NCBI GenBank assembly: GCA_002633005.1
Contig: NMRA01000262.1
Span: forward strand, 322,298 to 386,297
DNA length: 64,000 nucleotides
Direction of reading: 5' to 3'
DNA from: Phoronis australis
Taxonomy: Eukaryota; Animalia; Phoronida
Shown here: piece after piece, positions 36,101-64,000 of the stretch
How the letters are laid out: every line of letters starts with the position of its first letter
Position numbering within the stretch: position 1 is the first letter of the stretch
The notes under the pieces: generated by a model
The model's database searches: none
Seen by the model: the letters and a program-made list of their open reading frames with translations, nothing else
Told to the model about the DNA's origin: nothing
Program-made: the position numbers and the translations under genes

Positions 36101-38854
36101 TGTTACAATTCCAGTTTTACCTCTGGCTCAGATACCATCTGAGCTTCAGGCTAACAAGACAAATTAAAATCATGCTCAGACTTTGTTAATGGTGAATGCA
36201 GTTGAAGATTGAACACCTTTTCAAAAGGTTGGCAAGTGTGTGTTTGTTGTATTGACCATCTGTCTGCACACACAGGGTCAATGCACATCAGTGTCATGAT
36301 TGTATTATTTTGACCCTACAGCCCACACCCTCATTGTTTTGGTAGTCATGACAACTCATCAGATGGGGCAAATGATGCTTGTTATCCTCCTGCAGATTAA
36401 GAGCCCACATGCACGTTTGTGCTTGTATGCCATTATATGCCATAAAGAATTTTTTCTTCAAGAATTATGATAAAGCAGAATTCAAAATTTAGTTGAGAAA
36501 ATCATGGGCCCATTAGGAACGCTCCGTAGGATTGAAGAATGAGTAGCCTCAAAGTAAAATGTGGGAATGATCAAATATTTGCAGAAAACGACAATAACTG
36601 CAGTGAATTGGGAAGAGCTTAATCCAACGGTTTTGAGCTGACAATGAGTATAAGGTGTGAACTACTGCACAAATTTTGCATCACAAAAATATGATGAATT
36701 TTGAATTGAAGTAAAAGTACTGATCTCCATAGCACCAGATAGCAGCAATAGTCAACAATCCCATATGATCAGAGCACATTGTGTTGTAAAAAAGTCTCGA
36801 TGTTATGCTTTGTGAAAACATGCCGCTATCAATCAGACCTCTTACCCCCCAAATTATTATTGTTTGTTTGTATGTTTTCAACAGAATTTTGCCAAAAAGT
36901 TAGTACATGCCGACAGAGCATCATTGTTCTTGGTGGATAAGCTAACAAGGGAACTCTATGCCAGAATATTTGATACCGGAAAACTGACCGATGAGTCGCA
37001 CAGTCCCAGTACTGAGCGCGAGATAAGGTTTGGCATCTTAGTGAATTTCTGCTTTCACTCTCAGTAATGTTTCCTACTTGGCTGATTTGTTTTATTGTAC
37101 CAACTATAAGTTTCCTCTTGATAACAAACCTACATTGTAACAATCCATTTCAACAGCACTGTGTGCTCTTAAATGCGCTGTGGTGGAAAATAAGCTTATT
37201 ATTTTAAACCTATGACTGTCTTTTGCTCCCATGTCTTTTGTTGTACTTGTGGCCTGCTTTAGTGATTTTCCTTTTTGTTGTTGTTGTTGTAGTGATGTTC
37301 TTTTTGCTTGCTCACTGCATTTTTTATTCGTTTGTAGTCAGGTAAGTGTAGTCTGAGTACTTTAAATATGACAAAATTTGTTTTAATTATTTCTGATACA
37401 GTCTCATTGCTAGTTTTAGGTTAATTTTTGTTGCAAATTTGTCATAGCTGCCGTCACTGCAATTTGTCATAGCTGCCGTGACTGCAATTTTTTTTTGTTA
37501 ATTATTAAATCACACAATTGGCAGGCTTTGCAATGTCCATCTGTTTTTGTGTAATGCCCTTATTGTGTGGAGCCTAACTCAACAGATGGCAGTCAAATTA
37601 TGCACTGACAGTCATGTCACTGGTTTGGAGATTTGAATCTCAGTATGTCTAATCTCTGACCCATTTCTTGTGTTTTAAAAAATACTCTTTATTTGGGTCA
37701 GATATTGTAGAATACAGTTGTGTCTTTTTGAAGTTTCCTGTTGCCATGGCGAAATTCATTGGCTTCGGCTTCTGCACAAAATAATTGCCAAAGTTTCTTA
37801 TAACAGTTTTCAACAACTATTCAGTACAAACATTTATTTCTGATGAGAAAATTGAAGAAAATATGGTTGAAGTCCTCCATAATGCTTGCCAAATAGGTCG
37901 AGATGAATTTCATTTATCTAAATGATTTGAATTAAAACTTTGTTTTTTGACGTAGGGCAGGTTTATACCAGCACGAATGAAATTGTAGTTACAATACTTT
38001 AAACACTCATGGCATTTTTTATAATGTTTTTATAATGTTTATTACGAAATCTTCGATACAATGAATATTCATAACCCAGAAAGCACCAAGAGGCATTATA
38101 TCTGGGTTAAAAAAGTACAAAGAAATCTATATACAATTATTTTACACAAAATAAGAAATCTATATACAATTATTTTACACAAATACATAAATTAAAAAAA
38201 AAACTGTTGTTAAGATTACAATGACACATGGTTACGAAAGTAAATAAATCATTTTCATACACATGTACACAATTCTATCCACTCACACAAAGAGATTTAA
38301 TATTATAAAGAAATTTCATGGCTATTCCTGGTTCATTATTTACAATATTCCACATGTAGCCTGTATGATTATCACTGGATTCAGTCGGATAACATGGATT
38401 TCATTCTATGCAACAAGTGATATTAATTCTCTGAGCATAGTCACTCATGGCTACTTTGTGTGCATTCAGATAAGGAAGGGTATATATTTAAGACTTACCT
38501 GTGACTTGTCCATGTAGGTTTCCTATGGATAAGGGTGTGGCAGGGTACGTGGCCTCTACTGGCGCTATACTCAACATACCTGATGCCTACGCTGATGACA
38601 GGTTTAACAGGTATGCAGCTGTTATCTATATAAAAAAATTCCAATATATTTTAATATTATCAACCTTTAAGAAAATAGCATGTGTATTTTTGTCAAGGAT
38701 GTCCATAAGAATTTCAATAACATATTGCAAAATGTTCGCCTGAGGCTATATGGAGTTGACAGCCGGAGTACGCTTTGAAGTTTTTAACACTGCCAAAGCA
38801 ACGTATGCAAGGTTGAGGAAAATCAGCATCTTGGAAATGTTTTTATGCACCCAC

Positions 38855-38885
<31 letters not shown>

Positions 38886-41800
38886 GGAGAGTGTGTGTTT
38901 GTCACATTTTTCCCTGTGTGTGGGTGGGCGCAGGTGGTTACCAATCGTTTCTAATTGCTGTCGGTACAACGATAGCTTGAAGACTGGTTCGTTCACAAGC
39001 CTACTCAAAACGTCCGAAGTAATGTCTGTTTTATGCTCCAGCCAGTGTGTTCGTATGTTGTCATTTTGTCCAGGCATCAGTGTCTGCTCGAAATCTCAAA
39101 ACCACCTTGTCGAATTTTAATTAAATTCGGCACAAGGGTGCGTGGGCTTCACTAGAATGGTGCGTGCCACTTTTTAATCTGCTCCGCTTCCTGGGGTCAG
39201 TCAGGGGCGTGGCTTTTGCTGTATTGTTGGGAAGAGCGTTTCTGGATAGTACCTAGAGAACGGCTCTATGGATTTCAATGAAACTTGAAAGAAAGGTGTT
39301 TTATATCAATACACTATCACACTTAAATTTTCAGGTGGATTTAATCACTGCAGCACCTCCTAGTGGTCATTTTGTTCTTGGTGGCGGGTTCTTTCAAGTG
39401 TTGTTTTGGGGGCCAAATGATATCTAAAGAACTGATTGACTGGTTTCATTGGAAATTAAGACACAGGGGTATATGATGAGGTTGCACTGGCACCATTGCA
39501 TTTTTTGGCGGATTAGACAACTGCGGCACCTCATAGTTTTGGCTTTTTTGCTTCAGAGAGTTTCCAGATGTTATGTAGAAAACTGAGTGAAGGATTAATT
39601 TCAATTGAAGTGTTGTGGCAAAGGTATGTGTTGTCAATGTGCCAGCGCCATCAAATTTTCGTGTGCATCTGACATCCGTCAACACGTACCTTCTAAGGGC
39701 CATTTTATTCTTGACAAGGACTTTTCATGTGCTTCTTTGGACGGGAAGAGCATTTCCGGATGATATCAAGAGAACCGATTGACAGATTTCAATGACACTT
39801 GACATAGTGGTATATCATGAAAATGCGCCAGGACCATTTGACATTGGGGTGGATTTGATGACTGCAGTGCCTCCTAGTAGCCATTTTGTGTGAGAGCATT
39901 TTGAGATGTGTAGAGAACAGATTGAAAGATTTCAATGAATGTTGACATAGAGGTATTTGATGTCAATGTTCTTGCACCATTAAATTTTCAGGCAAATTTG
40001 ACATCTGTAGCCTCTCCTGGTGGCCATTTAGTTTTTAAAAATATGGTGGTTTTTAATTATTGTTTGGGGAAGAGCATTTCTGGGTGATATCTAAAAACAG
40101 GTTGACACAGAGGTAGAATATGAGATTGTGTCAGTATCATTTAAATGTTGGGCCAATTCAGCAACTGCAGCACCTCCTTGTGTCCATTTTGTGTGAGAGG
40201 ATTTTCAAGTATTGTTTGGGGAAGAGGGTTTCCGGAAGATATCAAGGGAACCTAAGTGGCAGACTTTGATAAAACTTAAGACATAGGTATTATGATGCCA
40301 ATGTGCCGGCACCATTTGATTTTCGAAAGCATTTGACCACTGCAGCACCTGGAAGTGGCTATTTTGTGGAAGATAACTTCCAGATGTTATTTCTTGAACC
40401 AATTGATGGAACTTGACACAGAGGTTGATTTCAAAGCGTTACTCCATTAAATTTTTGTGTGGATTTGACCACTGCAATACCTCCTAGTGGTCATTTTGTT
40501 CTCAAGTGGTTCTCACGTATTGTTGGGGGAAATGAGTGAGTTCTAGATGATATCAAAAACCAATTGAATGATGTCAACAAAACTTGACACAACTATGTAT
40601 GATGTCAACAAAACTTGACACAACTGTGTATGATGTCAATGCACTGGATCCTTCATTTTCGGAGTGTCAATTCGTCCACTGCAGCATCATGACTTTTAAG
40701 GAGCTTTTCAAGTTTTGATTGGGGAAGAGTGTTTCTGGATGGTATCTAGAGAGCTGATTGATGAATTTCAATGAAACTATTACAAAGTTATATATGATGA
40801 CCATGTGCTGGCATCATTTTTGTTTTCCACAAGAGGTAACTTTCAAGTGTTGGTTAGGGGAAGAGCTTTTTGTATTATATCTGGAGAATTGATTGACAGA
40901 TTTCAACGAAACTTGACTCACTGGTACATTATGATAATGCACCAGTGCCATGTGATTGCCGGGCTAATTCATTTACTGCAGCACCTCCTAGTGGCCTTTA
41001 GAACATATCATACACTATGCAACATGGGGGCATTGATATGCCTCCATGTTGCATAGTGTATTATACTCTTGTTATAGAAACTGTGAGGGTCTGCCAAAAC
41101 AATGTGCTTTGAAATGCTTTTGAACATGTCACTTACTATGGACAATCCCTTAATGAAATACCATAGTTGATTTAAACTTCTCAGAAACAAGTCGTCATGG
41201 TGGATAAACTTAAACAAGCAGAGTTATTAACCTTAAAACTGCATGTATGTAACAGCAAATCAAGTTAATATTAATGGTACTTGTGATGGCTATGATTCGA
41301 TTAAAATGTAGACTGTGATTTATTGTTTGCCATTGTCTAATTTTTCATACACAATTTATGTATTTGCAGAGATGTTGACCTTCAAACGGGCTACACAACA
41401 AGAACAATACTCTGCATGCCTATCTACATCAGGGGAAAGTAAGTAAATATTTAATACTTAAGATATTTTGTATTCATTCAAATTTTTATTGGCCCACATA
41501 TTTGTAAGTGGGTGCATTATGTCATCATTATGTCATCATTCCTGTCCATCCATCCCGCGTCCACTGCTCTATCTCCAAAACCATAGCGGATGGGCATGAG
41601 CTGTCTTACAACATCTCTTGTGGTGCTTTTTATTGCCCATCTTACCAGAGATTACCTATTATACGTTATTTACCTGTATTCATTATATTGTAATTGTATT
41701 AGTCATAATAAATGACCTTATATCCCCTACCTCGGTTTCCTTTTCATCTCTGGTAACGAGCTTGCGACGCACGTATCATTTATCTTTATTCGGGACATAT

Positions 41801-44800
41801 GTTGATCATATTAATTGCTTTCATGGATGGAATGGCATGGCCAAACTTTTGGATGTACTTCCCTACCAGTGTGCCCCCTTGTGGCAATTTTTTACATTGA
41901 TCTCTGTATCTTCAAAGGTCTTTAATGGATTTTCATAATATTTGGCATATAAGCATCTACTATCTTGCTGTTTTTGGATGAATTTAGGTATTTTGTCCCA
42001 CCTAGTGGCCATTTTTACTGTTTTCAAGTCCAGCCTTCTGCCAACCAAACCACTCTAAAAATGCTTCAGAAAATTGGCATATAAATTCTTACTGTAAAGA
42101 GGACTGCTGACGATGATTTTCCAGCGACTTCAACTGCTGTGTCAGGTTTTTTTTTACACCCATGGCTGTATCTCCAAAGCCCTCTGCAAGATCTTGAATA
42201 AATTTAGCAAGTGTATTTATATGAAATTGACAATGGATGACAACGATTTTTGGAGGAATCCGAGTTGTAACTGGTGTACTCCCTTTTAAGTGGCAATTTA
42301 ATTTTTTTATGTTTACCTCAGTCTATATCTTCAAAGGCCCTCAATGGATTTTCATAAAATTTGGCAAATAAGCATCTTCTAGTGAAGTGACGCTATTTTT
42401 CTGTTTTCATATGGATTCGAGGTATTTTGCACTACCTAGTGGTGTTTTTCACTGTTTTCAAGTTTGTTTTTGGCACCCACTCTTCTGTCAACCAAACCAC
42501 TCTAAGGATGATTGTGAAAATTGACATATATGTTCTTACGGTGAAGACAATGGCTGATGATGATTTTTCGACAAATTTGACTACTGTGGCGCCTCCTAGT
42601 GGCAGCTATGGTTTTTGGCTGTATCTCTTAAGCCCTCCACAGGATCTTTATTAAATTTAGCACGTGTATTTTCATGTGAGTAACAAGGGACGATGATGAT
42701 GACTTTCAGACGTATCCCATGAATGGTGGGCTAATTTCATTTTCTTTCTGTTTTTCTCTGTTTCTCTGAAGTTCCTTGCCGGTTTTTCTTGAAATCTGGT
42801 AAACAACTTTCTATTAAAGAAGCAATGACATGTTCCCGTGTTTTGCATGGATTTGACATATTTCGTGACATCTAGTGGCTATTTTTAATGTTTTCTAGTC
42901 TGTTTGTGGTGTCCGCCCCTCTACCAACCAAACCAACCTAAGGATGATTTTAAAAATTGGCATTTATGTTTTTACTGTGAAGAAGACGGTTGTTTGCATG
43001 GCTATCTCCCAAACCCTCTGCGGGATCTATATTTAATTCGGCAAGTGTATTTATACGAAGTTGAAAACGGCAAATTGAATGGATCCAAGTACCGCTGCAC
43101 CCCCTAATGGCAATTTTATTTTTTCATTACTTCCTTATCTTTGATATATTCTGCGCCACTTGGTTGTCATTTAAAAAATGTTTGAGTGTGTTTTTCATCC
43201 TTTCCATACACCAAACCGCTTGAATGCTTATAGTAAAATTTGGAGATGTGTTCTTGATCAGAAGGTTGAGGCTAACGCTCAGGGTTTTCGAACGTGTTCA
43301 ACTACTTTAGCCCACGAAGTGACAACTTTGCTTTTCTTGCGTGCGCGGCTGTATCTCCTTTACCCTTTACAGGATCTTTCTGAAACTTAGCAGATGTGCT
43401 AATTTTAGGCTAATTTTAGACTAATAGAGCTGTGCTCCCTAGTAGCAATTTTATTACTTGGCGGAATTCTTCGAATTCCGACAAGTATGTTGCTCTGTCG
43501 TCAAGTTTTTTTTTGTTCGCACTGTACAGGTCGCAATTTTCGTCGGATTCTCACGAAATTTGCACACGACGTGTAGATTGGAAAGTCCTGGAAGCCTATT
43601 GTTTTTGGTCATGATCAAATTCAAAAAAGGCGGACATGGCGGCCATTCTGTTTCCGATTTCAGAGTCAAATGCTCATAGAGGCCGCATTTTTCGACGTAC
43701 AGGGCTGAAACGTGGTACGATTATTATAGAACACATGTGCTACAACTGTGCCGAAAATCGTTGACTTCCAGTCAAAGATGGCGGAAATATTGGAAGTGGC
43801 GCATGCACCCCTCGATATCTGGCCGAAAACGTTTTCTCCTGTAGAGGGCGCATTGGCGAACCAATCACTTTCAAACTGGTCACGTGTTTGTTGCTTTTAA
43901 TCGGCTTTTATAAAATTTTGTTTAACCGGAAGTCACTTTCAAGATGGCGGCTGTGGCGCATTTTCACCCATTTTCAATTGTTCTGCTCTCGCATTTTTAA
44001 TGGGAAGAGCAAATGATGTGAATTTTTGCATGTTGATTCCTTGAAGTATGCTCTTTCAAACGTTCTGCGGTAACGTTTTTTCAGACTTACCGTTTTCGAG
44101 TTATTATACTGAATTTCAAAAAAACCCGCAAAATTTCAATTTTTTCGAAAAAATTATAGAATGTTGCGGAAATATCAATTTAGATAAAGTTTGGAACGGG
44201 CTTTCAGGAGAAGTTTTCCATTTTTCACTAGGACGTCTACTTTTTGTATTATTTGAGATTTTCTGATATCGCTGTTCCTTTGTTGAGCGCTCTAACTGCA
44301 TTGATGTTGGTTTAGTTTATTTGAACAAGACTGTAGTTTATTTCTTACTAATTTATGACATCTAAGTTCGTTGTATGAATGTTATGATGTTGTTCATCAT
44401 TGCCACCTTCATCATCGCAGTCATTGGCGTTAATTTTGCCTATTGTCGCTCAAGTCTGTAGGTAAGCACTGAACAGCCAGGCCGCGGCTACGGAGCATTT
44501 TCTAGTCCCTAGAATTTATGTTGAGGGCGTGTGTCAGGTTTGGCGGGTGGTTTGAGGAAATTGTTGACAATTGCCAAGAAACTTATTTACTTGTGTTTTT
44601 GAATGAGAAAAGCCAAGTTTTACCTACTTTTGATGCAAACTGGTGGCTGTCATTTGCTATCAACCCTTGTCGTCTGCTGTCCGAGAAAGCGGGTGCGATT
44701 TCAGGTGGCTGTCAGACAGATTAAATTTGCCAAAAAAGTAAATGGTAAGAGGCTTACTATTACCACATAGTTAGAATCTAGTGAGGACGAGCATTCTGAA

Positions 44801-47800
44801 TCTGTAGTCAGACTCTTTCTAGCACTTGCAGGGAAGTGGATATTTTGGGGAGAAAATTGTCAAATTTGGCGTTTTTTGCAAATAGTTTTGTGTGCCGGAA
44901 TTTTCTTGCCAATCAGAAATCTGTACAGTTCGGTAGAGTTTTAAACGGGCTTTCATAAGATATTTTTAATTTCTCGCTAGTCGTCATGATCGTCGTCGTC
45001 GTCCTTCCCATCGTCCTCTGTTCGTGTAATTTCGCCAAGTGACGCTCCTCCGAGCGCTCTCGTTTTTTATGTTTGCCTCTGTAACTCCAGAGTTCCTTGA
45101 TGCTTTTCCATGAAATTGGGCAAACAAATTTCTGTTATGAAGATGACAGCAGCTTTCCTTGTTGTGATGGCCGGATTCTGCAACAACTAGTTTTCATAAT
45201 TTTTTAGTCTGTTTTTTGTCGTTTGCTGTATCTTCCAAAATGCGCAGGCAGACAGGCGCTAGTCGGATATAATGGACCCTAACTTATTCCAAATAAATCC
45301 ACTAAATGTAGGTCTAAATGAATGTTTTTGGTATCCTTGCATTCCTCAGACATCTGGCTATCCATACAAATCCTTTTCACGACCCTCAATTACTCTAGTC
45401 TATAACTACGCTATTCCGAACTCGGTCCAATTTAGCCACGTGCATCGTGAAATCGTCAGCCATTTCATGGAACTTACTATATCTAGCGCTATCTATCAGC
45501 GATTTGCTACAACGCGCTGTTCCTTTTACATCAGTCAACGTCATTGGTCGATTTCGTCAATTATTAATGTCATTGTTATTATAATCATCGTACGACTGCT
45601 CTCGTCATCTGCACTTTCGTCGTCTCTCTCATGATCGTATCTGTCATCGTCATGTTATCGTTGTCCATGTTGACTGATGAAAAAGGAACAGCGCATGTTG
45701 TAGCAAATTGCCAATAGATGGCGCTAGATATAGTAAGTTCCCTGAAATGGCTGCCGATTTCACGATGCGCGTGGCTAAAGTGGGCCGAGTTCGGAATAGC
45801 GTAGCTATAGACTAGAGTAATTGAGGGTCGTGAAAAGGATTTGTACGGATAGCCAGATGTCTGAGGAATGCAACGATACCAAAATCATTCATTTAGACCT
45901 GCATTTAGTGGATTTATTTGGAATAAGTTAGGGTCTATTATATCTGACTAGTGCCGACAGTCATTATGAAAATTGGCAATTGTGTTCCTACTGACAAGAG
46001 CATGACTGATGGGGATTTTCAAATGCATCTAACTACATTGTCATCTAGGGCTGTTTCTCCTAAACCCCTTGGAAGATGTTTTTAAAATTTTGTAGTTGCA
46101 TTCCTATGAACTTGACAGCAGTCACTGTGGTTCATATGGCAGTTTGTTTCTTCAAGTTTGTCTTTTTATCTTTGGAGTTCTTTTACAGATTTTCATAAAC
46201 TTTGGAAAACAATTTCGAGAAACAACAACACAATCCCATTTTTGGATGGTTTCAATGTATTGTGAGCCACCTATTGGTCAATTTTATGATACAAATAAAC
46301 ACCCCCAGAAGAGCACCATTTGCGGTGCAGTCTTGGGTGCATTCCAATCCTCTGCTTTGTTCTTTGTTTCTGTTGACAAAAGATAATTATTTTAATTTTC
46401 AAAAATTTGAGATTTCCGTCCCTTATTGCCATTTATTTTTTATGTGTTACCCAATGAGAATCTGATAAATATAATTGGCAGAATTTCCTTTTCTCATTTT
46501 TTCAAAAAGTTTGTGAATGTCCTTAATTTGCCAACATATTGTATGATAGTAGCTGCTGTGTATGGATTTTGAAAATGGTTCACAATGACTTCCATTAGTG
46601 CTTGTGGCTTATGGTTTTACAAGAAAATAATTCTTCGTTTTTCTGCCATGTGGCTAAAATTAGAAAGACTTTCTGGTAATAGTTTGAGATTTTCGAATTC
46701 GTCAAAACGGAAAATTGTTAGCTTGACTATTTTGTCTTTTATTGATGTCTTTAAAAATTTCATTAAATTATTTGAGTACAGTTTTTGGCCAGGATTTGCT
46801 CTGCACTTTTAGAATATTTACATTAAGCGTGTTTTTGAGTGTTCATAACAGTTCACCTTTTGCATGAGGTTAATTGCAGTTGTTTAATTGGGAATACAAG
46901 TATTCATTATCAGGCCCCACTCATTACGGCGTTTTCCCTTTGCTCCCAACTTGTTCAATTCTGTAGCCCAACAATAAGTTGGGAAGTTTACCCTTGTATA
47001 GCCAATATCTTACACGACTGATTAACTCCATTCTGGCTTTCATGATTGGAGGGCCAGCTCTCTTTTGTTCGATAATTGCTCTAATCTTGAATAATCGTAC
47101 CTAGCCTGACTGCGCTTTGCTGTTCAAAATAAAAGTTAAGTTATACCGTATTTGAACATAAACCAATAGCATCTCTGAAATCCTCGTCAAATGGTGATCA
47201 TGTTTAGTTTTTGAATCGCCAAAATTGCCCAACTGCAACAGAAGTTACGATAATCTATTCTTTCTGAATGTACCAATTCACTCTGGGTTTGACGGTGTTC
47301 ACATGTGGTCTGTAATAAGCCTGGTAGATAATTAGCGTGCCTGTTATCATAACAGATAAAAGACTGTGCTTGGCAGTTAACAAAGAAGTTAGATATTATC
47401 ACATGCTCAGAACCCCCTTCGTCTGGTAAAGTCACTGAACGGGAAAACGCTTTCATGTGATCGACCACCCTGTATCTGCGCTCTTGCTGTAAATGTGTCT
47501 ACAATATAATATTATTCCCCAAGGTTGTGCTTTTTCATCCTTTGACACATATCTTATTGAGAGTGTAAGGCAAAAACTGCAATACAATGCTTCCAAACAC
47601 AAATGTTTCACATTTTTTCAGTATCATCGGTGTTGTTCAGATGGTGAACAAGTTGAACGGAACGTTTACAAAGAGCGATGAGGAGTCATTTGAAACATTT
47701 GCAGTATATTGTGGCCTGGCACTGCATCATGCAAAGGTAAGTTAATTTCAACACCTTCTGCCGTTAGGTGTCAGGTAAAACAACTGAACTTTTGTTGTCA

Positions 47801-50800
47801 AGTGGAACTACTTGGTCTAAATTGATACAAACTAGGTTGTTTTTGGGTGGCATTCTCCTTTAAGACTACTTTTATGATGGCCTAAAATCAGAACTTAAAG
47901 CCTAACTTCAAGGGAATTTTGTTATTTAATATATATTGAGTTAACCAGACAGTCCTAGCACAGCCTTAGCAAAATAAGAAAGCGTGAGTTTAATCACTAA
48001 AACGTAGGCCCGTCAAATGATTAGTGAAGTTGTCGTTTCTTGCCATATAGCGTCACCACGAGAACCCAGCACATTAAACAGCAAAAGGCTGATAACAGTT
48101 GCATTGAATAGAGGTCTGAATAGAAAACATTGAGTATCTGTGTTATTCGCAGCTGTTTAAATTAAAATTAGGCAATTGTTTTGGTGACGTAAAAAGCATT
48201 TGCCAATAACCCAAACAGCTTATTACATTTGGCACTTAAAAGCGATGCTCTTAACATAGTCAGAACCAAGTTTACTGGTGTTACTGTTCAAGATGGGCTT
48301 TAATGTCATTCAAAGGATGTAGCTAATTACTACTTGCAAATTTTAAGACCTTAAAAATAAGCTTATTTGAATTTTCACCTTGAAACTGTAGACAAACTTA
48401 CCAACTAAGATTTTATCAGTGAGAATCTTTTCCAGTTGTCTTCTTAGTTGGCTATTACTAAACATCATGCTGGGTAAGATTCTTGCATTAGAGTTCAAGT
48501 TTCACCGAATCAGATTTGCGGATTTTTTCACTGCCTATGGTTCAATCCTGCATGTTTGAGCCATCAGGATTAGACGCAAATTTTCAAGATTGATAAAATC
48601 TAAAACATTTTTGCAAATTCTGACTTTGTGTGTTTGGCAGAGGCTGTTCAATAGATTCAAGAAACTCTTGAGAAAAACTAAATGTAGCCGTGAAAGGCAG
48701 CGGAATGGATTGATTGGTTGCTCTAAGACTTCATATTGGGAATGGATTGATTGGTTGCACTAAGACTTCATATTGCTTTAATTCATACCCATTTGTAGTT
48801 ATATGACAAAATCAGGAGATCGGAGCAAAAGTACAAGGTAGCTTGCTTTAATTCATACCCATTTGTAGTTATATGACAAAATCAGGAGATCAGAGCAAAA
48901 GTACAAGGTAGCTTGCTTTAATTCATACCCATTTGTAGTTATATGACAAAATCAGGAGATCAGAGCAAAAGTACAAGGTAGCTTGCTTTAATTCATACCC
49001 ATTTGTAGTTATATGACAAAATCAGGAGATCGGAGCAAAAGTACAAGGTAGCTCTAGAAGTGCTCTCTTATCACAGTCAATGCAGTGAGCAAGAAGTGGA
49101 AAGATTAAAAGACAGGGTAATCAGTGCACCTGTTGAAGATTTCACCAGGTAAGGTCACCTGTGCATACAGAGTAATTGGAGAAAATACTGCTTCTTCCTG
49201 ACAACTTGTAGTGACTGGTCATTCTAGCTTTGATGATGAATTCTGGTTGTTGTAGTGACTGGTCATTCTAGCTTTGATGATGAATTCTGGTTGTTGTAGT
49301 GACTGGTCATTCTAGCTTTGATGATGAATTCTGGTTGTTGTAGTGACTGGTCATTCTAGCTTCTTTGATGATGAATTCTGGTTGTTGTAGTGACTGGTTA
49401 TTCTAGCTTCTTTGATGATGAATTCTGGTTGTTGTAGTGACTGGTTATTCTAGCTTCTTTGATGATGAATTCTGGTTGTTGTAGTGACTGGTCATTCTAG
49501 CTTCTTTGATGATGATTTCTGGTTGTGTTCAGCCCTCATCATGGGGAATTTTGAGTTATTTTGTTTGACTATTATTGGCGTGTACTATGCAACAAAATTT
49601 GTAAAGTTTTTGTATGTTTAAGAAACAGACATGAGCTCTACCATACTTAAAATGCTGATTCACTTGTTGGCAATTTTTGATGTCAAAAACATTTTGGTAG
49701 CACCTGGTCGCCATTTTAGTTTTTGTCAGAGTTTATCTGAGGTGCATTCCATAGATGCAAGAACCTCATAAAAAGTCAAGACCTGATGCACGACCACTTA
49801 AAATCACCCATAACTCATAAGTGAAACGCAGGTGCTCCATGAGTTTGCTGTTCCTTACCAGCATACGCTAGCAAAATGTCATCCCTTGTCCACTGATTAT
49901 TGTCAAAATGGCCAGACAGATTTTTGATGGACCTTGACAGAGAGGTTTTATGACTGTGAGAAGCACCAGCCCAGTAAAGTTTGATGGCAAAATTACTGTA
50001 CTTAAGTAACATGAAACGTAATGTCACTCAGACTTTTGTGCAGTGTTTGAATAAATGTGCTGGCCCACCGGTCCAATGTGTCTGACCCAGCTGCCAAGTT
50101 GCTGGCCCTGCTTTTAGCTTCCTATCTACGTTTTTGTCCATCTTTCCTGTACACTAAATGTGCATGTGCGTATGAACCCCATTTTTTTCAGTAACTCTAG
50201 GTGAGGAGTTGTTGGTATGAACACCATGTAAGCTGTGGTTATTAAAATAAAAGTCTTTAACTGGATTTAACCAATATATTTTTGCAAAACACATTTCTCA
50301 CTGCACAGAACTCTAGGCTAAAGTTCTATCAATAAACAATTTAGTGAATGGGGGGATCACTCATATATATTGCTCACAAGGTTCAAACTCGTTAGCATTG
50401 AATTAATTGGTTATGAAATCACATCCACATATATAAAAGGGCCTATATGTGAAAGTTTGCTGGCCCAGCCACAAATCCACTGGCCTCGGATCACCGGGTA
50501 TTTCGAATGCTGCTTATTTGTAAAAATGATCTTCATAAATGTATGTTTCCCATTCCAGGTACGATTTTTCACCATGGGCAATTGACAATGATGAGAAGCC
50601 ACTGTATGTGATAAAGATGTTCAAGGCGCTCTTTGATGCCAGTACTAAGTATAGGTAGGAGATAGTTGATAGTGATTGTCAAGTGTAATACAAGCTTAGT
50701 GTGACACATGTCTGCTGCAGGAATCTTTGGATTCTGCAGTGCAGTTCTTCCTGTTCAAAATAAAGCTGCATATCGCTCTGTTTAGCTGGATAAAAACTAA

Positions 50801-53800
50801 AATTGAATTAGGCTTTTTAGTATAGTAAAATTAATCTTGTAATGTCACCTAGCATGATGTGATTCAGCTTGCATTCCCGACACAAAGCATCAGTTGTGTC
50901 AACGACTCAAGCAATGGCTCAGAGTTTAGGGTCGGCCAACCCTCAAGTTTGAAAGTTGTGCATGTACCCATTGCCTGTGACTCGTGCTGGTAATAGAAAC
51001 TATACGAATTCTATCATGCTGACGAGTGTCATGAGATTGTTTTAATAGGAGTATGTCAGGTCTAATTAGATTTTTGTTTTTGCCAGCTTAAAAGAGGGTG
51101 AAATGCCACTAAAAGTCTTTGAAGTGATATTATTGCGCTGAAGTAAAATTTGTGCATGGAATCATAAGAATATCACCTGTTTGATTAAGAATTAGCCAAT
51201 ATTACTTTCCTTGTATTTATTGATTTGATAAGTATTTTTTGCAATTTAAAAAAATCTATAGTGAGTTTTTACTATTTTGTGGCTGTCCAAATGCCAAAAG
51301 AGCTAGACACACACAGTGATATTTCCATATTTTATATGTCCATTAAGGTATGATCAAGAGACTCTGGTCAAGTTCACGCTGACAATACGCAAGAACTACC
51401 GCACCGTGCCATATCACAATTGGGCTCATGCCTTCTCAGTGGCACATGCTATGTTCACAGTCATCAGGACCACCAAGAATGACTTCACACCTTTAGAGGT
51501 AGGAGTGAACACCAAGCTGCAGAGTTCATGTTACTTTTTAAATATAGACAAAATCTCATTTTGTGCAAGGTTTAAGATAAATGTCATGATCATTTAGGGT
51601 GTTTAAAATTTAAATAAACATCCACTTCTCAGCCTGGCGAGATGGGTGAAGATTGTGTAAACTTTTCTCAAAATTATGACAGAAATAGACTACAAAATCA
51701 GGTGATCAATTTTGTTTAAAAGTATTGACGATTTCAATAAAAAATGATATTTAGTTGTTAAGTCTTTTAAAACATCAGAGTTTGGTCAATATGTCTTGCA
51801 AATATTGACCCTGTTAGATGGTTCAAGTGCCCAACTACAAGTTAGAACAGATTAAATTTTTAGTACAATTTGTCTTTTCCTTAAAATAATTCTAACTAAA
51901 ATGAGACTTGTTAATGTTCATAAAAGACTGGTCTGTTTTAAAGTGGCGCTAAACTCATGCATTTTGTCAAAAAACAACGAAATTTTGATGTGATCTCTGG
52001 AAAGCCCTGCATGTGGTGACTTCTTCAGACTTTAAGCTATAGTCAGGTCACACACGACCTGCAGTTCCTTCATAACATTTTAGGTCACACACGACCTGCA
52101 GTTCCTTCATAACATTTCAGGTCACACACGACCTGCAGTTCCTTCATAACAATTCAGGTCACACACGACCTGCAGTTCCTTCATAACATTTCAGGTCACA
52201 CACGACCTGCAGTTCCTTCATAACATTTCAGGTCACACACGACCTGCAGTTCCTTCATAACATTTCAGGTCACACACGACCTGCAGTTCCTTCATAACAT
52301 TTCAGGTCACACACAACCTGCAGTTCCTTCATAACATTTCAGGTCACACACGACCTGCAGATCCTTCATAACATTTCAAGTCACACACGACATGCAGTTC
52401 CTTCATAACATTTCAGGTCACACATGACCTGCAGATCCTTCATAACATTTCAGGTCACACACGACCTGCAGATCCTTCATAACATTTGAAGTCACACACG
52501 ACCTGCAGTCCCTTCATAACATTTCAGGTCACACACGACCTGCAGATCCTTCATAACATTTCAGGTCACACACGACCTGCAGTTCCTTCATAACATTTCA
52601 GGTCACACACGACCTGCAGTTTCTTCATAACATTTCAGGTCACACACGACATGCGGTTCCTTCCTTTCATTTCAGGTCACACACGACCTGCAATTCTTTC
52701 ATAACATTTCAGGTCACACACGACCTGCAGTTCCTTCATAACATTTCAGGTCACACACGACCTTCCGGTTCCTTCATAACATTTCAGGTCACACACGACC
52801 TGCAGTTCCTTCATAACATTTCAGGTCACACACGACCTGCAGTTCCTTCATAACATTTTCAGGTCACACACGACTTGCAGTTCCTTTATAACATTTCAGG
52901 TCACGCACGACATGCGGTTCCTTTAACATTTCAGGTCACATACGACATGCGATTCCTTCATAACATTTCAGGTCACATACGACCTGCGGTTCCTTCATTA
53001 CATTTCAGGTCACTCACGGCCTGCGGTTCTTTCATAACATTTCAGGTCACAGACGACCTGCGGTTCCTTCATAACATTTCAGGTCACACACAACCTGCGG
53101 TTCCTTCATAACATTTCAAGTCTCACACGAAGTGCAGTTCCTTCATAACATTTCAGGTCACACACAACCTGCGGTTCCTTCATAACATTTCAGGTCACAC
53201 ACCACCTGCAGTTCCTTCCAATCCCACAAATCACACCTATTTTGACCAAGGAACGTTAACTTTACATCTATGTCATGATACTATGTGATTGAAATCAAAA
53301 CTGTTTTTGACAGCTGTGTATTGTTGTTTTTAATACTTGTGATGTCTATCACTGATTCAATATGATCTTCGATCAGTGTCACAATGAATAATGGGCCTAT
53401 GCATTTGGTAAGGGCAATCTCAGCTAGTCATGTTTTTGTTATTATAGCAGTCAAGGAACTATAGTGCCCGCTGAACGCTACTCTAATTTATTGTTCCCGT
53501 TTGTCAATTTACTGGAGAAACAAAAAGTCAAGATGTGGGCATTAAATGAAATGCAGCAAAATTGGGTTATGTGAGATTTCAGTTTGAACATGGAAATTCA
53601 ACCTAACCTGAAAATACGGTATTGTGGACCAAGTGCATCAATCCTACGCAAAATCAACGTCGTAATTGTTTGAGGTTTTCTGTTCTAATCTAGTACGCTT
53701 TGCCTTATACATGGATGACAGTTGTTTCATCCTGGTTTGTACTTGATGTCCCAGACATTAAAGTTATCAGATGAGTATGAACTCATAGTCTCCCTTAAAA

Positions 53801-56800
53801 TCTGAAGTTTTGAGTTGTCTCAGACTAGCTCAAATCTAATGGCCATCATGTAAAAACATGATCACATAATATAAAAAATAGAAGCTTATTCTAAATTTGG
53901 AATACTAATCTCAAAAATACTTTCAAATTCAATTTTCAAGATTCCATGTCCTGAAATTCATTTTACTTTCTTTTGCCTTACGCTAGAGCCTGGTGTTGTT
54001 CGTTGCCTGTCTCTGTCATGACCTGGATCACCGTGGCAAGACCAACGCGTTCATGGTAAAGAGTGCCTCCCCTCTGGCCGCCATTTACTCTACATCGACT
54101 ATGGAGCACCATCATTTCAACCAAACTGTCTCAATACTACAGCAGGATGGCCACAATGTGTTCCGATACTTGTCACCTCAAGAGTACAAGCAGGTCAGTG
54201 GATGGTTTTCTGTCTGTGATACTGCAGGGTAGCCAGGGGTGTGTTCCACAGTGCGAAACACTCAACTGGTCGCTTGCAGCCAAAATATTTGGCTTGTGTG
54301 AATTTCTCCATTTTTCTGGGCTATGCTAGTAAGGTTGTGAGCTTTCTCTCAACACACTTGCCTTTCATCTTGTCAAGCTTTCAATTAGAATCTTATTTCT
54401 AAGGAATGCACCTTGGTCTTCCTCTCTTGTGGCCATTAGAGCATTCTCATCACTATTGTACTTTTTCATGAATAAACTTCTTTTACCACAGGTTGTATTT
54501 ACATTCCCACACATTGCAATTCTTTTCTTAAAAATATATTTTTGCAATGTACGAATTTCAGTTCAAACTCTTGAACGAGCAAGAGTTAGGAAATGTGCTT
54601 TTAACTTAAAACTGTTGAAATGTATCAATACTGTGTAACAATACTGTGTAACAATACTGTGTATGTATATGTATCAATACTGTGTATCTGTATGTATCAA
54701 TACTGTGTATCTATATGTATCAGTACTGTGTATCTATAGTACATGAGGAAAAATGTGCTCTGCAGAATGCTTAATATGACTTTTGAGAAAAACATCATTT
54801 TCAGATTTATTCAAACTGACTGTGGAAAAAATAATAATTCTTAATCCTATTTTTCAAAGGCTCCCTGCTTAGAAATTTCATCATTGTATAATTTGCTTAC
54901 TGTTATTCTGTACAAGACAAGCCAACAGCAAAGAAAATAAACTTTTCTGTAATGTTATTTTTTGATGATTAATGTGTCCAAAGGGAAATTAACTTGCTTG
55001 CCATACTGTGTTCCAAATTAAAGACTACTGTATTCAAACAAAAATAATGACCAACATTGTCTTTTTTCGTTTTTCAAATGCTCACTGTATTGCCAAAATG
55101 TTAAAAGTTTCATACTAATATATAGTTTTCAAATTATCAATAATTGTGTTTGGACACTCTCGTTGCAAATTTTACTAAACTTTTGATAAAATGAAAGTTT
55201 AACTGTTCTGCAACATTGTTTTCTAATTTGAAGAAACTTCATATTCTCTTCTATTGTAAAAATCACGCCTGCTCCAAACTAGAAGAAACTAAATGTTTGC
55301 AACAGCAAATCAAACTGAGGGTCATATAGTTGAAGTTCCTGGACCAGTTCATATACTTTTGGTTGCAGTGTTCGCAGAGTTGGAAATGTTAAATAACTTT
55401 GTAAACTTTCCTTCTCTTCACCCCATTGTTTGTATGCCTTTAAGATAGCGAAATCATTTACAAAATTTTCAAGTAAAGTAAAGATTTTATTTTTACCTTA
55501 TGCATGCTTTGACAAGAGAAAACTGGACAGTGCTCCTAAAATCATAAAAATATGTTGGTTAAATTCAGAATTGGTCAATTCAGTTTTGTTTCTTACTATG
55601 AAGAATGAGCTTGTTTGCAAAGTCTCTGGTGGCATTTTTATTGTCCATCTTTCCAGAGAGAATATTATTTCACGACTATATAGCTATTCTCTAACACTGT
55701 ATTGTACCACAATTCTCCTACACTGTGCTGTACCACTATTCTCCTACACTGTGCTGTACCACTATTCTCCTACACTGTGCTGTACCACTATTCTCCTACA
55801 CTGTATTCTCCTACACTGTGTTGTACCACTGTTTTCCTACATTGTGCTGTACCACAATTCTCCTACACTGTGTTGTACCACTGTTTTCCTACATTGTGCT
55901 GTACCACTATTCTCCTACACTGTGCTGTACCACTATTCTCTAACACTGTGCTGTACCACTATTCTCCTACACTGTATTCTCCTACACTGTATTCTCCTAC
56001 ACTGTGTTGTACCACTATTCTCTAACACTGTGCTGTACCACTATTCTCTAACACTGTGCTGTACCACTATTCTCCTACACTGTATTCTCCTACACTGTGT
56101 TGTACCACTATTGTCTAACACTGTGCTGTACCACTATTCTCTAACACTGTGCTGTACCACTATTCTCCTACACTGTATTCTACACTGTATTCTCCTACAC
56201 TGTGTTGTACCACTATTCTCTAACACTGTGCTGTACCACTATTCTCTAACACTGTGCTGTACCACTATTCTCCTACACTGTATTCTCCTACACTGTATTC
56301 TCCTACACTGTGTTGTACCACTATTCTCTTACGCTGTCTTGTACCATGACTATTCTAGTAATAATAAACAATCTATTCACACCAACCCCTGGTCTCCTTT
56401 TCATCTCATGCGATGCATGATTTTTATCTGGTCCAGGTGTCATGAATGAAATAGTAAGTGTAAGCATTATAATTACAGAGAGTGTACACTACCATAATTC
56501 AACTCCCCATTTCTACAGGAGTTTTCATTGGTAGTCCATGGATATTCCTTATTGAAATTTAAAATATGTTTACTCTGAAAAATGAGAATGCTTTTGTTTA
56601 TTTTCAGGCACTTGGAAAAATCAAAGAGTGTATCTTAGCAACAGACCTGGCCTTATTCTTTGGGAACAGAGCAAAACTTAAGGAACTTGTTGATCAAAAG
56701 AAATTTGACCCTACAATACTGAATCACAGGTAAAAAAACAGCTGCAATTTAAAGTGTTAAGACATGCAATTAACCCACTTACTATCGCACTCATCTGATT

Positions 56801-59800
56801 TAAAGCCCAAGATGTATAAATTGAAAATGTCAAATGTCAGGATGTAGAGAAATTTCCCTGTTGAAATGAAGTACTCATACAAACTGAAAGCAACTTGCTT
56901 ATTTTCACACAAAATGACTGAAAACAAGATTTAGTGTTACTGCCAATTTCATAGCTGATCCCAAGTTATGCCAATGTCCACCAAACTTTGATGAGATATA
57001 GTTTGATCAATTTTTTTGAATGGAAACAAGAGACTTATCAGAATATTTGGTCTGTAGAATTTGGGACATTGGACATTCAGTACATAATTGTATACAAGTT
57101 GCTGACTAAGTTGTCTTTGGGAGGACATTATGTTCAAGTTGCTGACTTAGTTCTAGTTTTGAATCTGTTCTTTTATCATTTTTGCGTGTAGAAGGTTAGT
57201 GGAGGCCATATTGATGACTGGATGTGACCTGTGTGCAAGTACCAAACCCTGGGACATCCAATGCAATACTGTTAGCGTTATATTTGAGGAATTTTACCTC
57301 CAGGTAGAGATCAATTGCCATAGATTACTGTCAATGCATGAGTCACTGTAGTGAAGAGTAGAGTTGTAGAAACAGTTTTCTACTGCATTGGAGGTGGTTA
57401 GTCTCACCTCCATGTACAATAATACCTGCTATAGGTTGGCAAGGCAATGTATGGGTGTTGTGAGTGGTGTGAGCTGTAGTCTATTTCTCTGAAGCCTGTA
57501 GTGATTTCTATTCTGAATATTAGAAGAAAACATGGGTTTATAGACTCTTTAAATTGCTTTTTTGAATGATTGGTCTATTACATCACTTCATTGTCAAAAT
57601 AATTACATAATGAGACAGTGAGAGACATTCACTCAAGCAACTAAGGATGACAAAGAAGGACAATCAGGACAAGAAAAATTGTAATGTATTTTATAGTATT
57701 ATGATGGTTGTTCTTTTTATTGATATAGTTATTATAATGTTGAATTTAGATGGTTTACAATCATGGCACACAACTAAGAGTTAAGAGCAACATTGTACGA
57801 AACAAGACAAGGCATGCAATAGTGTCAGTGCAAATAATAAATATATTAATAGATAATAAAACTATAAAGGATATTTTCATCGTGTTTGGTAGGTTTATTC
57901 CAAAATACACGAATACACAAAACAGTAATAATAAGTAAATAATTAAAGTAACAAATAAGATAAGGACACACTACAGACACATGGTAATAGGAGCCTATCA
58001 AAGAACTTCCCTTCATTGCTCTGTGATGCTTTGTAGTGTCAAAAAGGTGTGCTCCATTGCACGTTTCAAATGTCTGACACATACCATCATTATTTTTCTT
58101 TTGCCATAGTCGATAAAAAACGAATGAAATTTTTGTCATCACCGACGATTATTATCACTGAGAAGTAGTTACTTGTGCACACTTTAAAACCAGTAATTTC
58201 TTTTTGTCTTCATTGTTTTATACTTTACAGTGACCTCAACACCATTACTCTGAAACTTGTTTCTTGTTTGTAAATGTTATCTTAGAACTCCATTTCTGTG
58301 TATTTCTATTAATGACTCATATTTTACTACCAATTATCAGATCAGAAAAGCATCGGCTATGAATGATTGCATTTTGTTGCAAGGTTAGATAATTGTTTGG
58401 AATTCAAAACCAACAAAGAACTGGGAAAATGACATTGCTTTCATGCTTCACAATATTTAAATTTAATTTTTTTTTCAAAATTATTCACCAGGTTCATACG
58501 TACACTCGCTATTTTGTTTCATGATTTTCCTTTCTCACTCTCAGTTGCTGCCTGTTTTCACAACCTATTTGGCTCACACTTTTCCACTCTACTTTAACTG
58601 GTAGAAGCCTTTCCCCGCTCTCCACCTGGCAATCTTGCTCAGAGTGAAAAGCTACACTTGGAGCAGATCTGCTCCTATTTTTTCAGTGTATGTCAGGGTC
58701 TTATACCATTATTGCTAGTGCATGCTTTGATCAGTTCTTTACATCCTGGGTCCAGATCTGTTCATAATTGCTAGTGCATCATGGGCTTAGATGAACTCAT
58801 TTACAGTACAAGCTAAAAGAAAGCAGACACCATTTCCACATCATGGCTATCAATTCCGCCTGCATTTTTTTCCCGCTGAACTCGAACTGGAAATAACACA
58901 CCACGATGCATAATAACAGCTGTAATCTGTCATCATAACTCTAATGACATCATACCGGTCCATTACTTTGAACAACCAAGTACTTATGAGGCAACAACTC
59001 AACTACCAAAGTACATAATGGCACACTGCCCAATTACAAGATTTTTGCCCAGTGACAATCATAAAAGTTTAACTATACCTTTCAATCACGCAGAGTTTGG
59101 GTATTTTCTGTTAGCTGTTAGCGGACTGAGACCAATGCCTACGTACAGCTGAATTATGAAAAAAAAAATTTTACCGTAATCAGTTTGCAAAATACTTGCA
59201 TGGGATAAATATTTCTGCACGATTAGAGCAAAATTGTTCTCATGAACATTCTGATTCTGTCGCGTATTTTGTAAGCAAGACCATGTACCTTAAATGATGA
59301 ATTTGCGAAGCCTCAAAGTACTGCACAGGGCATCGGAATATGTTAAATTGTGCCCTTTAGAAAAAGATAACAATGTTACTAGGTGTTGTAATACCATAAC
59401 AAATAACAAAAAACAAAACATCAAATACAATCCTTTCTTCATGTGCTCAAAATTATCTTCATGAGACCAGGGACGGAAAGACATCAAATAATTAATAAAG
59501 CAACCGAAAGAATGAACTGTAGACCAATGAAAGCGGAAGGCGGAGATTTTTGTGGAAATTGTACATAAGAGTGTGGGCCTAAATCAGCGCTCTGGTGTTG
59601 TGTCAATATCATGAACAACATGAAATCAGTAGCACAGTACATGTACATGAATCAGTTTTAATTCGATGTAACTTGAGACAGAAACGCGGACTTTTGCATG
59701 TATAAAGTAGCAATGAGTGACCTAATTACAGTGTAACTGTCGCTTGCATTGGGATTCATCTTTTAAAGTTAACTTGAGGTTTGTTCACGATTGATTAGAT

Positions 59801-62800
59801 CAGAAATATAGGAACAACTAGCTATTCCACTTGAATTAAACATGACATGTCTACTCATACATGACATGTCTACTCATACATGACATGTCTACTCATACAT
59901 GACATGTCTACTCATACATGACATGTGTACACTTATACATGACATGTCTATTCATACATGACATGTCTACTCATACAGTTAATTCCGCTAAACATGACAT
60001 TTCTACTCATACAGTGCAGTTTCGCTAAATTATGTCAACTGAAATAGCATGGAATTTTATCTGCTCAGCAGGCCTGACTTGGAATACCTTTGTTTTTTCC
60101 GTTTACTTTTGGCTTGAACTGTATTAACTAGTGCATGCTGGGATCAGATCTGTTCACATTACTAAGAGTGCATATTGTAGATTCATCACGGCTTGGAATT
60201 TTCCTCTTTTAAGAGGATTACCTCTTTTTTGATTTCCACTTGTTTCCAGTTTCCCCTTTTTTTGTTTTTTTTTTCATTTTGACTTGATTCACTCAAAAAT
60301 GTTTATTTCAGTTAATTTTTACATCACAAAAATATCTCCATCGCACTATCCTATTTATTTGTGGAACGATACATCACCTGTCCTCGTTTTTGTCATTGGT
60401 CATTCCAAGCCCTGATTCATAATAGCTATAGTGCATGTTCTTGGGATCATATCTGTCGTGTAGCAGGATCAGATCTTTTCACATATCTGACTAGTGCATG
60501 ATGGGATCTAGGTTGCATCCTATAGATACAAGGCTGTAGTCACGTGATAGTGTAATCATGTGCTTCCCTTTTAATGGATGGCAACATTTTGATGGTGAGG
60601 AAGTACATGATAACAATTCTCTCACAAGAAACTTAATTGGTCTCAGGAACGCAATCCAGATCTGTTCACATAACTAGGGGATGATGAGGTCATATCTGCT
60701 CATATAACTAGTGCATGATGAAGTCATATCTGTTCATATAACTAGTGCATGATGAGATCAGACCTCTTCATATAGCTAGTGCATGCTTGTCGTTGTTGCT
60801 ATCGTCGTAACTGTTGTCATTCTAGAGAGATGTTGATGTACCACAGTATGACTGCTGCTGATCTTTGCTCAATGTATAAACCATGGAACCTCCAGGTCAA
60901 GTTAGTTAACATCATTATGGAAGAGTTCTGGCAACAGGTAATGCATGTTGTAGCAACACAATATGGTAGTTATATAACCATTAAAGCCATTGGAAATTAA
61001 TGTTTTTTTCTAAATGTTGTTATGTGTAGCTTATTGTGAGATAGCCTGTAGCCTGGCTGCTACATGAAGTAGTGACATTTTGTGAGCTTATTACATGCCA
61101 TCTGTTTATCATGTTGCCTAATGATGGAACATAAAATCATTCATTTGAATTTGTTCACAATGTCTTCATGATGACATCCATTTTTATTTTCTGATAACTT
61201 TCAACATAAACAAGCAGATTCTCCTGGAACAGTACCCAAACTTTTGCTTCTTATTTTCTTCCCAGTAAAATCAGGGACTTCAACTTTTGTAGACTGTCAA
61301 TTTTTAGTATTAAGCTTATGCTGATGAATGTTTTTCAATCCCTGAGCGTTTTTGGCGGCATGCCAGCAGTTTTCCCAAATGTTCCTTGCATTAGTCAAGT
61401 GAAATAATCTATGTTTGTAAAGATGGCAAAATTTGACAAGGTTAAGCTGGTCCATCCTACACAGCGATACTGGAATCTTGCTGTATTTACCCAGGATGTT
61501 ATAAACATCCGTCGGAACATTTGCTCTCTCCTTTTCGTGCCATTGGAATTACACTTATTTGTTGTTGTCTGATTCTTTTCAAGTTTTATTCGTAATTCCA
61601 ATGCTAATAAAGTATTACTGCTGTGTTATAGGCTGCATCTCCGATGTGAGAAATTTTAATAAACTGGACAGTCAAATGCCCATGTATACGTGATGTGATA
61701 TTCTTTGCCTTACTGACATCAATGAGAGACACAAAAATGTGCATGATTTCCAAAAAAGAGGTCACAGGCGTTTTTATCTCTGGGACAAATGAGAGTTCTA
61801 TTGCCCAACTGAGACTAAACCTTACAAATATGAATTCAAGCACTTTTACAGAAGGTGTTGGAAATGTTCCCCATCGGCATCTAAGCACAATTTAATTCGC
61901 ACAGCTCTATGGAATACATTAGTCAAGAATGAAATTGACAAACTACTGAAAAAACTCTTATAGGCACATTGAGTGCTACATGAAGTTTTGAGCCCCAAGC
62001 TCAAGCAGAAAAAATTATTACGAAATGTTTGTGGCCAAGATGTCTAAGGAGATTCACCTTGTATTCAAACTTTTGTATGTTTTTTCCACAAATATAAGCA
62101 GTGCACTATGTTAGTGTGAGTCACAAATACTTATGTTCACTTACAACCATTTCAGGGTGATGAGGAGAAGACACAAGGAATCCAACCTATAGCTATGATG
62201 GACAGAGCCAAGGCACACCAGCTTCCTCAGAGCCAGGTACTGTTTTAACAAGCACTTCCTGCAATACCACAGTGCTCTTTTGATTCTGCAGTATTTACCC
62301 ACAAACCTGTGCATTTGCTGGGCACTTCCCTCACAGCTGTGCACTGCTGCTGTGTTAATAACTATAGTTTGCCATTTGTCATCATTCTTACGCCAATAAA
62401 ATTTTAAGTGAGTTGCAATACAAACTCAAGTCCCTGGGATCCACACACATAGTTACACTAGAACAACTTGCACTAGTGCAACTTACCATGGGCGGCGCAG
62501 CACTGAAAAAAGTGGGGACTATCAGCCCCCCTGTGGTACACCGCCCATAGACCATGGGTGCCAGAGCACTGAAAAAAGTGGGACTATAGCCCCCAGCCCC
62601 CCTATGGTGCGCCGCCCATGCTTACCCCTCTTTTAAGTGGAGCTTCCACATATATCCAATAACTGGGCCAGGTGCCTTCATCTATTCTCACTCAAGTCAA
62701 GGTAAAAATAATTCAAATTAAGTTAGTGTGTAGGTAGTTAATAGAGAAGATATTCTGGACACGTCCTAGTAAGTGCACACCACCAGGACAAGTAATGCCA

Positions 62801-63318: not shown

Positions 63319-64000
63319 ATTGTGGGATATCACATTTTACAGCAATTGCTTTGATACCAGTCATTTACTTCTGCACATTTAATTTCACATTGTGAAACGT
63401 ATGTCAGTTGTTGACAATAATTGTCATATACCATATTTGCAATACGATGAAGGGAGCACCTTGCTACTTTCTGCATAATATTACTTTTAGACTGTGACAT
63501 GCAGGTTAATAGTCAGGTGTGGAACAAGAGGGGGCCTACAGGGTTCAGAACTCCCCATCTGAGCTTTTGCTGTGTTGTAATAGAAGAATATAATTTGGCA
63601 GTCTCTTGTGAAACACTTGCAGTAACTGAAGGAAACTGTGTGCCATTGACAATAGATGGCGCTGGCTTCACAATGAGAATTTTGAAAGGTATACTAAGAA
63701 AAAAGGGACAAAAAACAAAATCTCCACTTTTCACCCCAAAACCACCACTTGTTTGCCGATGCACAACTAAAACCAACATGAGATTTTGAAACCAAATTTC
63801 CTACCAATTCCAAAACTGGTTCAAAAGTACTGTCAACCAACTATTTCTTTTGCAAATCTGGCTACCTAAAATCGCAGCCAAAATCTCGTTACCCAGCCGT
63901 GCAAAATTGCAACAGGGGCCGCCATCTTGAAGAAGAGTGCAGCTACAGCCAAGCAAGTGATGTTTTTCATTTTCAACATGTTCACAAATACAAACAAACC

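Follow-up and report, generated by a model that had tools for sequence, protein, structure and literature searches.

Results

Host gene and repeat-bearing exon

The window, by which we mean the whole stretch of 64,000 nucleotides analyzed, contains a forward-strand gene that, judged by its GAF-GAF-PDEase_I layout and the names of its best matches, is a PDE10/pde-5-like phosphodiesterase (Table 1). The open frame of the model amounts to 754-757 aa when one exon of each duplicated pair (see below) is used. Of 302 candidates, 280 proteins matched the peptide of the repeat-bearing exon at E <= 0.001. Named proteins among the 120 matches listed were nearly all pde-5-like or PDE10A, with both GAF and PDEase_I domains; the others carried generic names. 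The best matches among the sequences fetched at full length (about half of the 120 listed) came from an annelid and two nemerteans (62-65% identity), which points to a lophotrochozoan host. PDB searches returned PDE5/6/10 relatives only, and nothing bearing on the repeat. Gene family and array anatomy had both been recognized correctly in the original prediction, which also placed the repeat in exon 16, in agreement with our in-window model (a numbering that counts both alternative GAF-B exons); the exon is 140 nt long, not 141 nt. The introns on either side of this exon measure 1272 and 1410 nt. Further upstream, a candidate 32-nt exon at 22869-22900, missed by tblastn and HMM, has strong splice sites and would restore the frame between 19840 and 23867.

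Table 1 Features of the host gene and of the repeat array, in window positions
Feature	Position	Strand	Remarks
Host gene, PDE10/pde-5-like GAF-GAF-PDEase (by domain layout)	9020..63320	+	25 exons modelled in the window; 5' end not fixed
Upstream exon (exon 15)	47622..47736	+	donor at 47737 joined to the acceptor in RNA
Intronic 37-bp x2 duplication abutting the array on its 5' side	48702..48775	.	TRF; gapless in X4 contig 48410-48802
Three upstream copies (G, A, A), decoy acceptors	48774..48983	+	each with branch-like TTAAT motif (A at -18), pyrimidine tract, AG, 45 nt of exon and cryptic AAG|GTAGCT donor; tandem junction in X1 and X4 contigs
Fourth copy (G), authentic intron end and exon start	48984..49053	+	runs on into the remaining exon
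Authentic exon, 140 nt, 16th in the model	49009..49148	+	between second GAF and catalytic domain; strong donor CAG|GTAAGG
Intronic 47-bp x7 minisatellite, 58 nt behind the exon	49206..49526	.	TRF; local repeat background
Downstream exon (exon 17)	50559..50654	+	joined to 49148 in RNA; loose read ends located at 50562

A 70-bp unit repeated across the 3' splice site

The fourfold 70-bp unit of intron end and exon start that had been predicted was confirmed by both sequence matching and TRF. The period-70 match spans 48773-49053, with copies starting at 48774, 48844, 48914 and 48984, and TRF reported 4.0 copies of period 70 with 99% matches (score 548) for 48774-49053; the match among the four copies is far beyond chance, and the longest exact repeat within the array reaches 139 nt. 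Each copy joins 25 nt of intron end to 45 nt of exon, which yields exon starts at 48799, 48869, 48939 and 49009, exactly the four identical acceptors proposed, and the AG|GT proto-splice site is duplicated along with them, as had also been stated. The sole variable site reads G at 48822, A at 48892, A at 48962 and G at 49032, in accordance with the claim that copies 1 and 4 share one variant and copies 2 and 3 the other; the difference is synonymous and tags the copies.

Three productive outcomes had been envisaged, namely (i) skipping of the decoy acceptors, (ii) use of an upstream copy as a micro-exon and (iii) a new intron within the array. Reading through from the acceptors of copies 1-3 runs, as foreseen, into a stop, the TGA at codon 26 (48874, 48944 and 49014). 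Outcome (ii) would give a 39-nt micro-exon that keeps the frame and adds 13 residues, while for outcome (iii) the distance from GT 48838 to AG 49047 is 210 nt, the removal of which would restore the native exon on paper.

Splice-site strengths and linker length

The 23 donors and 24 acceptors of the gene itself supplied the matrices with which splice sites were scored. All four array acceptors, identical over 25 nt, scored alike (PWM 5.4). The decoy donor AAG|GTAGCT reached 6.9 compared to 13.0 for the true donor, which is more than 7 of the 23 real donors achieve; the same site lies unused in the native exon and is outscored by 3 of 113 exonic GTs. Outcome (iii) would require the AG at 49046-49047, which scored -8.3, compared to 0.8 for the weakest of the 24 real acceptors, and falls into the bottom 7% of the 3318 AGs in the window. 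Its lack of a pyrimidine tract, already remarked upon in the original prediction, is evident from the purine-rich exon sequence in front of it, with 4 pyrimidines in 16 positions and five other AGs within 38 nt, the nearest preceding one being 6 nt away compared to 17-90 nt for real acceptors.

The linker between the GAF and catalytic domains, into which additional residues would be inserted, comprises 16 residues in 101 of the 102 homologs that matched the search pattern (18 of the 120 fetched homologs did not match it), the exception having 22. The 13-residue duplication was absent from all 120 fetched homologs.

The array in public sequence data

The upstream intron is carried by four runs of one study. 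Two reference stretches, each with one complete copy of the unit, were compared with Logan contigs of X1 and X4 and with reads of RNA runs chosen by species label (X5-X7). X1 is likely genomic; X4 is labelled 'DNA?' and was taken as RNA because of its spliced contigs. Alleles were assessed by simulating graphs of 31-letter words and comparing them with the observed contig pieces, copy number being inferred from contig break points only. A single copy gave one unbroken contig in simulation. X1, however, fell into pieces of 59, 71, 905 and 212 nt, with break points matching simulated (G)n with n of at least 2, and X4 into pieces of 81, 49, 393, 35, 168 and 331 nt, matching an (A)n-G pre-mRNA together with native mRNA. 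The 59-nt junction contig of X1 had a depth of 12.6, compared to 11.3 and 6.0 for its flanks, and in X4 the tandem junction was found in the 81-nt contig, both the G and the A variant being seen. The tandem junction is thus present in contigs of two public samples, and the array is therefore not an invention of the assembly: it is real. The same junction contigs rule out a single-copy site. That the window holds exactly four copies is nevertheless unproven, because the exact internal repeats in all 36 arrays of the window (see below) top out at 140 nt.

Neither X1 nor X4 matched the raw G-A-A-G pattern, and X1 differs from the window at 49161 as well. Three arrangements in three sources (the window, X1 and X4) therefore point to a variable repeat, and copy number likely varies between animals. 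Logan contigs lose rare paths, and pruning could account for part of these allele differences; in fits to contig depth, a pruned G-A-A-G array from which the A bubble had been removed gave a chi2 of 4.2 for X1, compared to 2.7 for (G)n, while for X4 a heterozygote of single-copy and array alleles gave 1.0-1.1, compared to 1.0 for an A-G homozygote.

Transcripts across the array

Of each raw RNA run (X5-X7), 18-19% was read, and splice joints supported by fewer than 3 reads were not listed. The joint from 47736 to the acceptor was covered by 9 reads of X5, 2 reads of X6 and 1 contig of X4; within the 18-19% of X7 that was read, 0 reads fell on this junction. Six of the 7 aligned X5 reads start in exon 15, and the depth stays at 6 beyond the end of the array. 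All six informative X5 reads were native, passing 49053 into unique exon sequence, and at most 1 of them can carry A; 3 further junction reads of this run appear to end before the cryptic donor. With 0 of 6 reads showing another product, the 95% upper bound for such products in X5 is 39%.

The spliced contigs of X4, with depths of 21.9 and 22.5, carry G and lead unbroken from exon 15 through one unit and the unique exon sequence into exon 17. The only junction path carries A, at a depth of 4.3, and unspliced pre-mRNA is visible at a depth of 4-7. The pieces predicted by micro-exon use, by read-through or by outcome (iii) from an A copy were all absent from the X4 graph, and no go-back joint from unit to unit was listed in two alignments of four runs each (joints of at least 3 reads). 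In X5 and X6, no intronic read from which an array genotype could be told crosses the array.

Of the two X6 reads at the junction, one ends precisely where the cryptic donor lies (side 41; depth 0.44, bin 49044-49052). This read is ambiguous and may be a plain read end, for which we estimated by hand a chance of about 1 in 10 (11 junction reads, roughly 110 possible ends), or a micro-exon product whose tail is too short to align. Overall, the transcripts seen in X4 and X5 are the native message, at shallow depth. Skipping of the decoy acceptors, outcome (i), is borne out by this native RNA; leaving the ambiguous X6 read aside, the 49009 acceptor was the only one found in use at that depth, which is the outcome that the original prediction had named as its own refutation.

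Repeat background of the window

Merging of 49 TRF rows gave 36 arrays, which occupy 5771 bases or 9% of the window. Given 32 intragenic arrays and 47 splice boundaries (a count without the tiny exon at 22869), chance predicts 0.88 boundary-spanning arrays, compared to 1 seen; the position of the array at a splice boundary is no more than chance expects. The 3' end of the 37-bp x2 duplication falls on the opening bases of the 70-bp array, so that the two duplications abut. Two other arrays, 60660-60785 and 33782-33870, stop 41 and 79 nt short of an acceptor and exclude it. Six or seven of the 36 arrays measure 174-189 nt regardless of their unit; these similar lengths and the 140-nt ceiling may indicate that longer arrays were collapsed when short reads were assembled. 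The upstream intron additionally holds dispersed repeats at about 47757-47865, 47895-47930, 48076-48170 and 48240-48305, to which many reads and contigs match at 90-95% identity with unrelated flanks, and which are probably remnants of small transposons.

Putative mutually exclusive exon pairs

Two homologous 112-nt exons of the catalytic domain, 57192-57303 and 60826-60937, are each open alone and break the frame together, and for this reason they are likely mutually exclusive. The pair aligns to the stretch of PDE5/6/10 around the conserved D-L motif, which we take to line the substrate pocket. Of 62 full-length homologs, 12 matched the second type best, those with names being molluscs and nemerteans, and two Haliotis entries carry different types. 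Nothing relevant on mutually exclusive exons in PDE10 was found in the literature among the matches listed. The beginning of the second GAF domain is likewise encoded by two homologous exons, 35811-35944 (134 nt) and 36885-37027 (143 nt), which also break the frame when combined, so that their sequences suggest a likely second mutually exclusive pair. Homologs split 47 to 15 between these two types, some by small margins, and the donors AAG|GTTCAA and AAG|GTTTGG are among the weaker ones of the gene. We regard the 112-nt exon pair as more interesting than the array itself.

Discussion

A probably harmless minisatellite at a splice boundary

We consider it highly probable that the array is a real minisatellite across a 3' splice site, likely variable and neutral, from which normal mRNA is made, likely by splicing at the last copy. 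It would have arisen by the same kind of local tandem duplication as the other 35 arrays of the window, with later turnover by slippage or unequal exchange. Copy 4 would be selected through exon definition, as it is the copy with the complete exon and has a strong donor 140 nt away, whereas for copies 1-3 the exon would measure either 210-350 nt or, with the weaker donor, 39 nt; the three upstream copies would then leave with the intron. Messages with premature stop codons are subject to nonsense-mediated decay, and read-through products of copies 1-3 would be expected to be removed in this way because their codon-26 stop sits 132-272 nt before the next junction. Under selection, survival would be expected only for duplications on the acceptor side whose last copy includes the whole exon, which is the arrangement seen here. 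Exon definition finds a parallel in the available sections of PMC9225289, according to which splice sites that lie nearest each other across an exon are preferred when the introns are long, as both are here; this support is partial, because the upstream preference that human alternative 3' sites show overall is, in the same sections, just reduced between long introns.

An alternative explanation is that splicing includes an upstream copy at low level as a 39-nt micro-exon, joined to a later acceptor, which would add 13 residues and create a new intron of at least 31 nt. The donor that this outcome needs is stronger than some of the real ones and the product is in frame; the X6 read stopping at that donor and the potato RdRp gene, which offers a precedent in the sections available (PMC4974935), also speak for it. 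However, no junction of this kind was listed, 0 of 6 X5 reads and none of the X4 contigs correspond to it, the X6 read may be a plain end, the same donor stays silent in the native exon where few exonic GTs score higher, and the near-constant linker of the homologs, all free of the duplication, argues against it. We therefore regard micro-exon use as unlikely. The same holds for the broader proposal that a SNP-tagged, segregating mirage (see below) represents the initial step of an intron gain, with minority transcripts carrying the micro-exon, a linker longer by 13 residues and a new short intron; this is improbable on the present evidence.

It is quite improbable, too, that the upstream acceptors are often used and their premature-stop products destroyed, so that the array lowers the output of the gene. 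Four acceptors with identical sequence and score would permit such masked read-through, the positions of the stops fit decay, the preference for upstream 3' sites in humans is in line with it (PMC9225289, sections available), and a heterozygote whose normal mRNA could stem mainly from a single-copy allele is also compatible with the X4 depths. Nevertheless, X4 contains no read-through contig despite its visible pre-mRNA, arrays in all three DNA sources (the window, S1 and S2) suggest little cost, and mirages are reported not to disturb splicing in the sections available of PMC3087553 and PMC3902484.

A Rogers-type gain through outcome (iii) is very unlikely. The arithmetic works, since removal of the 210 nt by way of the duplicated AG|GT restores the native exon, and from copy 1 (G) the product equals native mRNA and would hence be invisible in the mature RNA of a G-A-A-G animal. 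What fails is the acceptor, which scores below all 24 real ones, ranks near the bottom of the AGs in the window and has another AG 6 nt ahead; moreover, the junction-linked copies in X4 carry A, the spliced path carries G, and the predicted pieces are absent. Nor does outcome (iii) quite represent the classical tandem-duplication model, as had been suggested, because that model duplicates a purely exonic AGGT segment and the unit here spans a boundary.

Finally, an assembly artefact of a single-copy site is extremely unlikely: the 140-nt ceiling on exact repeats (139 nt here) looks like a limit set by read or word length and the count of four may be wrong, but the copies are not identical, and junction contigs occur in two samples, with both variants in X4.

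The idea of an intron gain or exon duplication in progress thus finds no support, either in the RNA seen, which is native, or in the weak acceptor of outcome (iii); the locus is likely not an intron being born but a harmless repeat of the lancelet-mirage kind. As it stands, the array is one more tolerated splice-boundary minisatellite, outside lancelets, and matters little. It does provide a natural test, since the G/A tag and the apparently differing alleles can reveal which of several identical acceptors the spliceosome picks. Should micro-exon use prove true, the locus would represent a rare intron gain that is still polymorphic and whose source sequence is available, and the first direct support for the mirage-to-intron model of lancelet globins.

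Comparison with known systems

Among lancelet mirages, that of Adh3 is reportedly unstable somatically. The sections available of PMC3087553 and PMC3902484 describe mirages as units of 10-160 bp that retain AG/GT signals, differ from haplotype to haplotype and do not disturb splicing; they include the globin genes BflGb6 and BflGb9 as well as Adh (Adh3), troponin C and PGBD5 (PMC3902484 for the last three). BflGb6 resembles our array above all, with an intron 3' end and the adjoining exon start repeated in tandem, 6 and 3 units on two haplotypes, and an intron-gain model that its authors offer as a hypothesis (PMC3087553, sections available). Like mirages as described there, the array has the intron 3' end and the 5' part of the next exon in tandem, a unit (70 bp) within the given size range, preserved splice signals and a normal mRNA. 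The haplotype length differences of lancelets may be compared with the (G)n of X1, the (A)n-G of X4 and the G-A-A-G of the window, part of which pruning may mimic. Unlike those loci, the host here seems not to be a lancelet, given its annelid and nemertean best matches, the copies are 99% alike compared to the 81-100% given for BflGb6 (PMC3087553), and a synonymous G/A site tags them.

The 37-bp VNTR in intron 7 of human F7 is similar in that its edge unit spans the exon-intron boundary and identical pseudo-sites are normally silent. It lies on the donor side, however, where the sections available of PMC1557585 explain the choice by 5'-to-3' scanning; another rule is needed here, because on the acceptor side such scanning would lead to the first copy, the wrong one.

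The remaining counterparts are taken from the sections available of PMC4974935. Under the Rogers model, a purely exonic AGGT segment is duplicated in tandem, and as in ATP2A1, a duplicated AG|GT could supply both intron ends here and leave the protein unchanged (PMC4974935). The ATP2A1 duplicate, however, brings a pyrimidine tract and a branch point before its new AG, a place taken here by purine-rich exon sequence (PMC4974935). In potato RdRp, as in our array, the duplicate covers the 3' end of an intron and the 5' start of an exon, with a cryptic donor in the upstream copy; its donor is GTAAG compared to GTAGC here, and 106 RNA-seq reads cross its new junction, whereas none were listed for ours (PMC4974935). 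By analogy, this boundary-spanning precedent would correspond to outcome (ii), the splicing of an upstream copy as a micro-exon.
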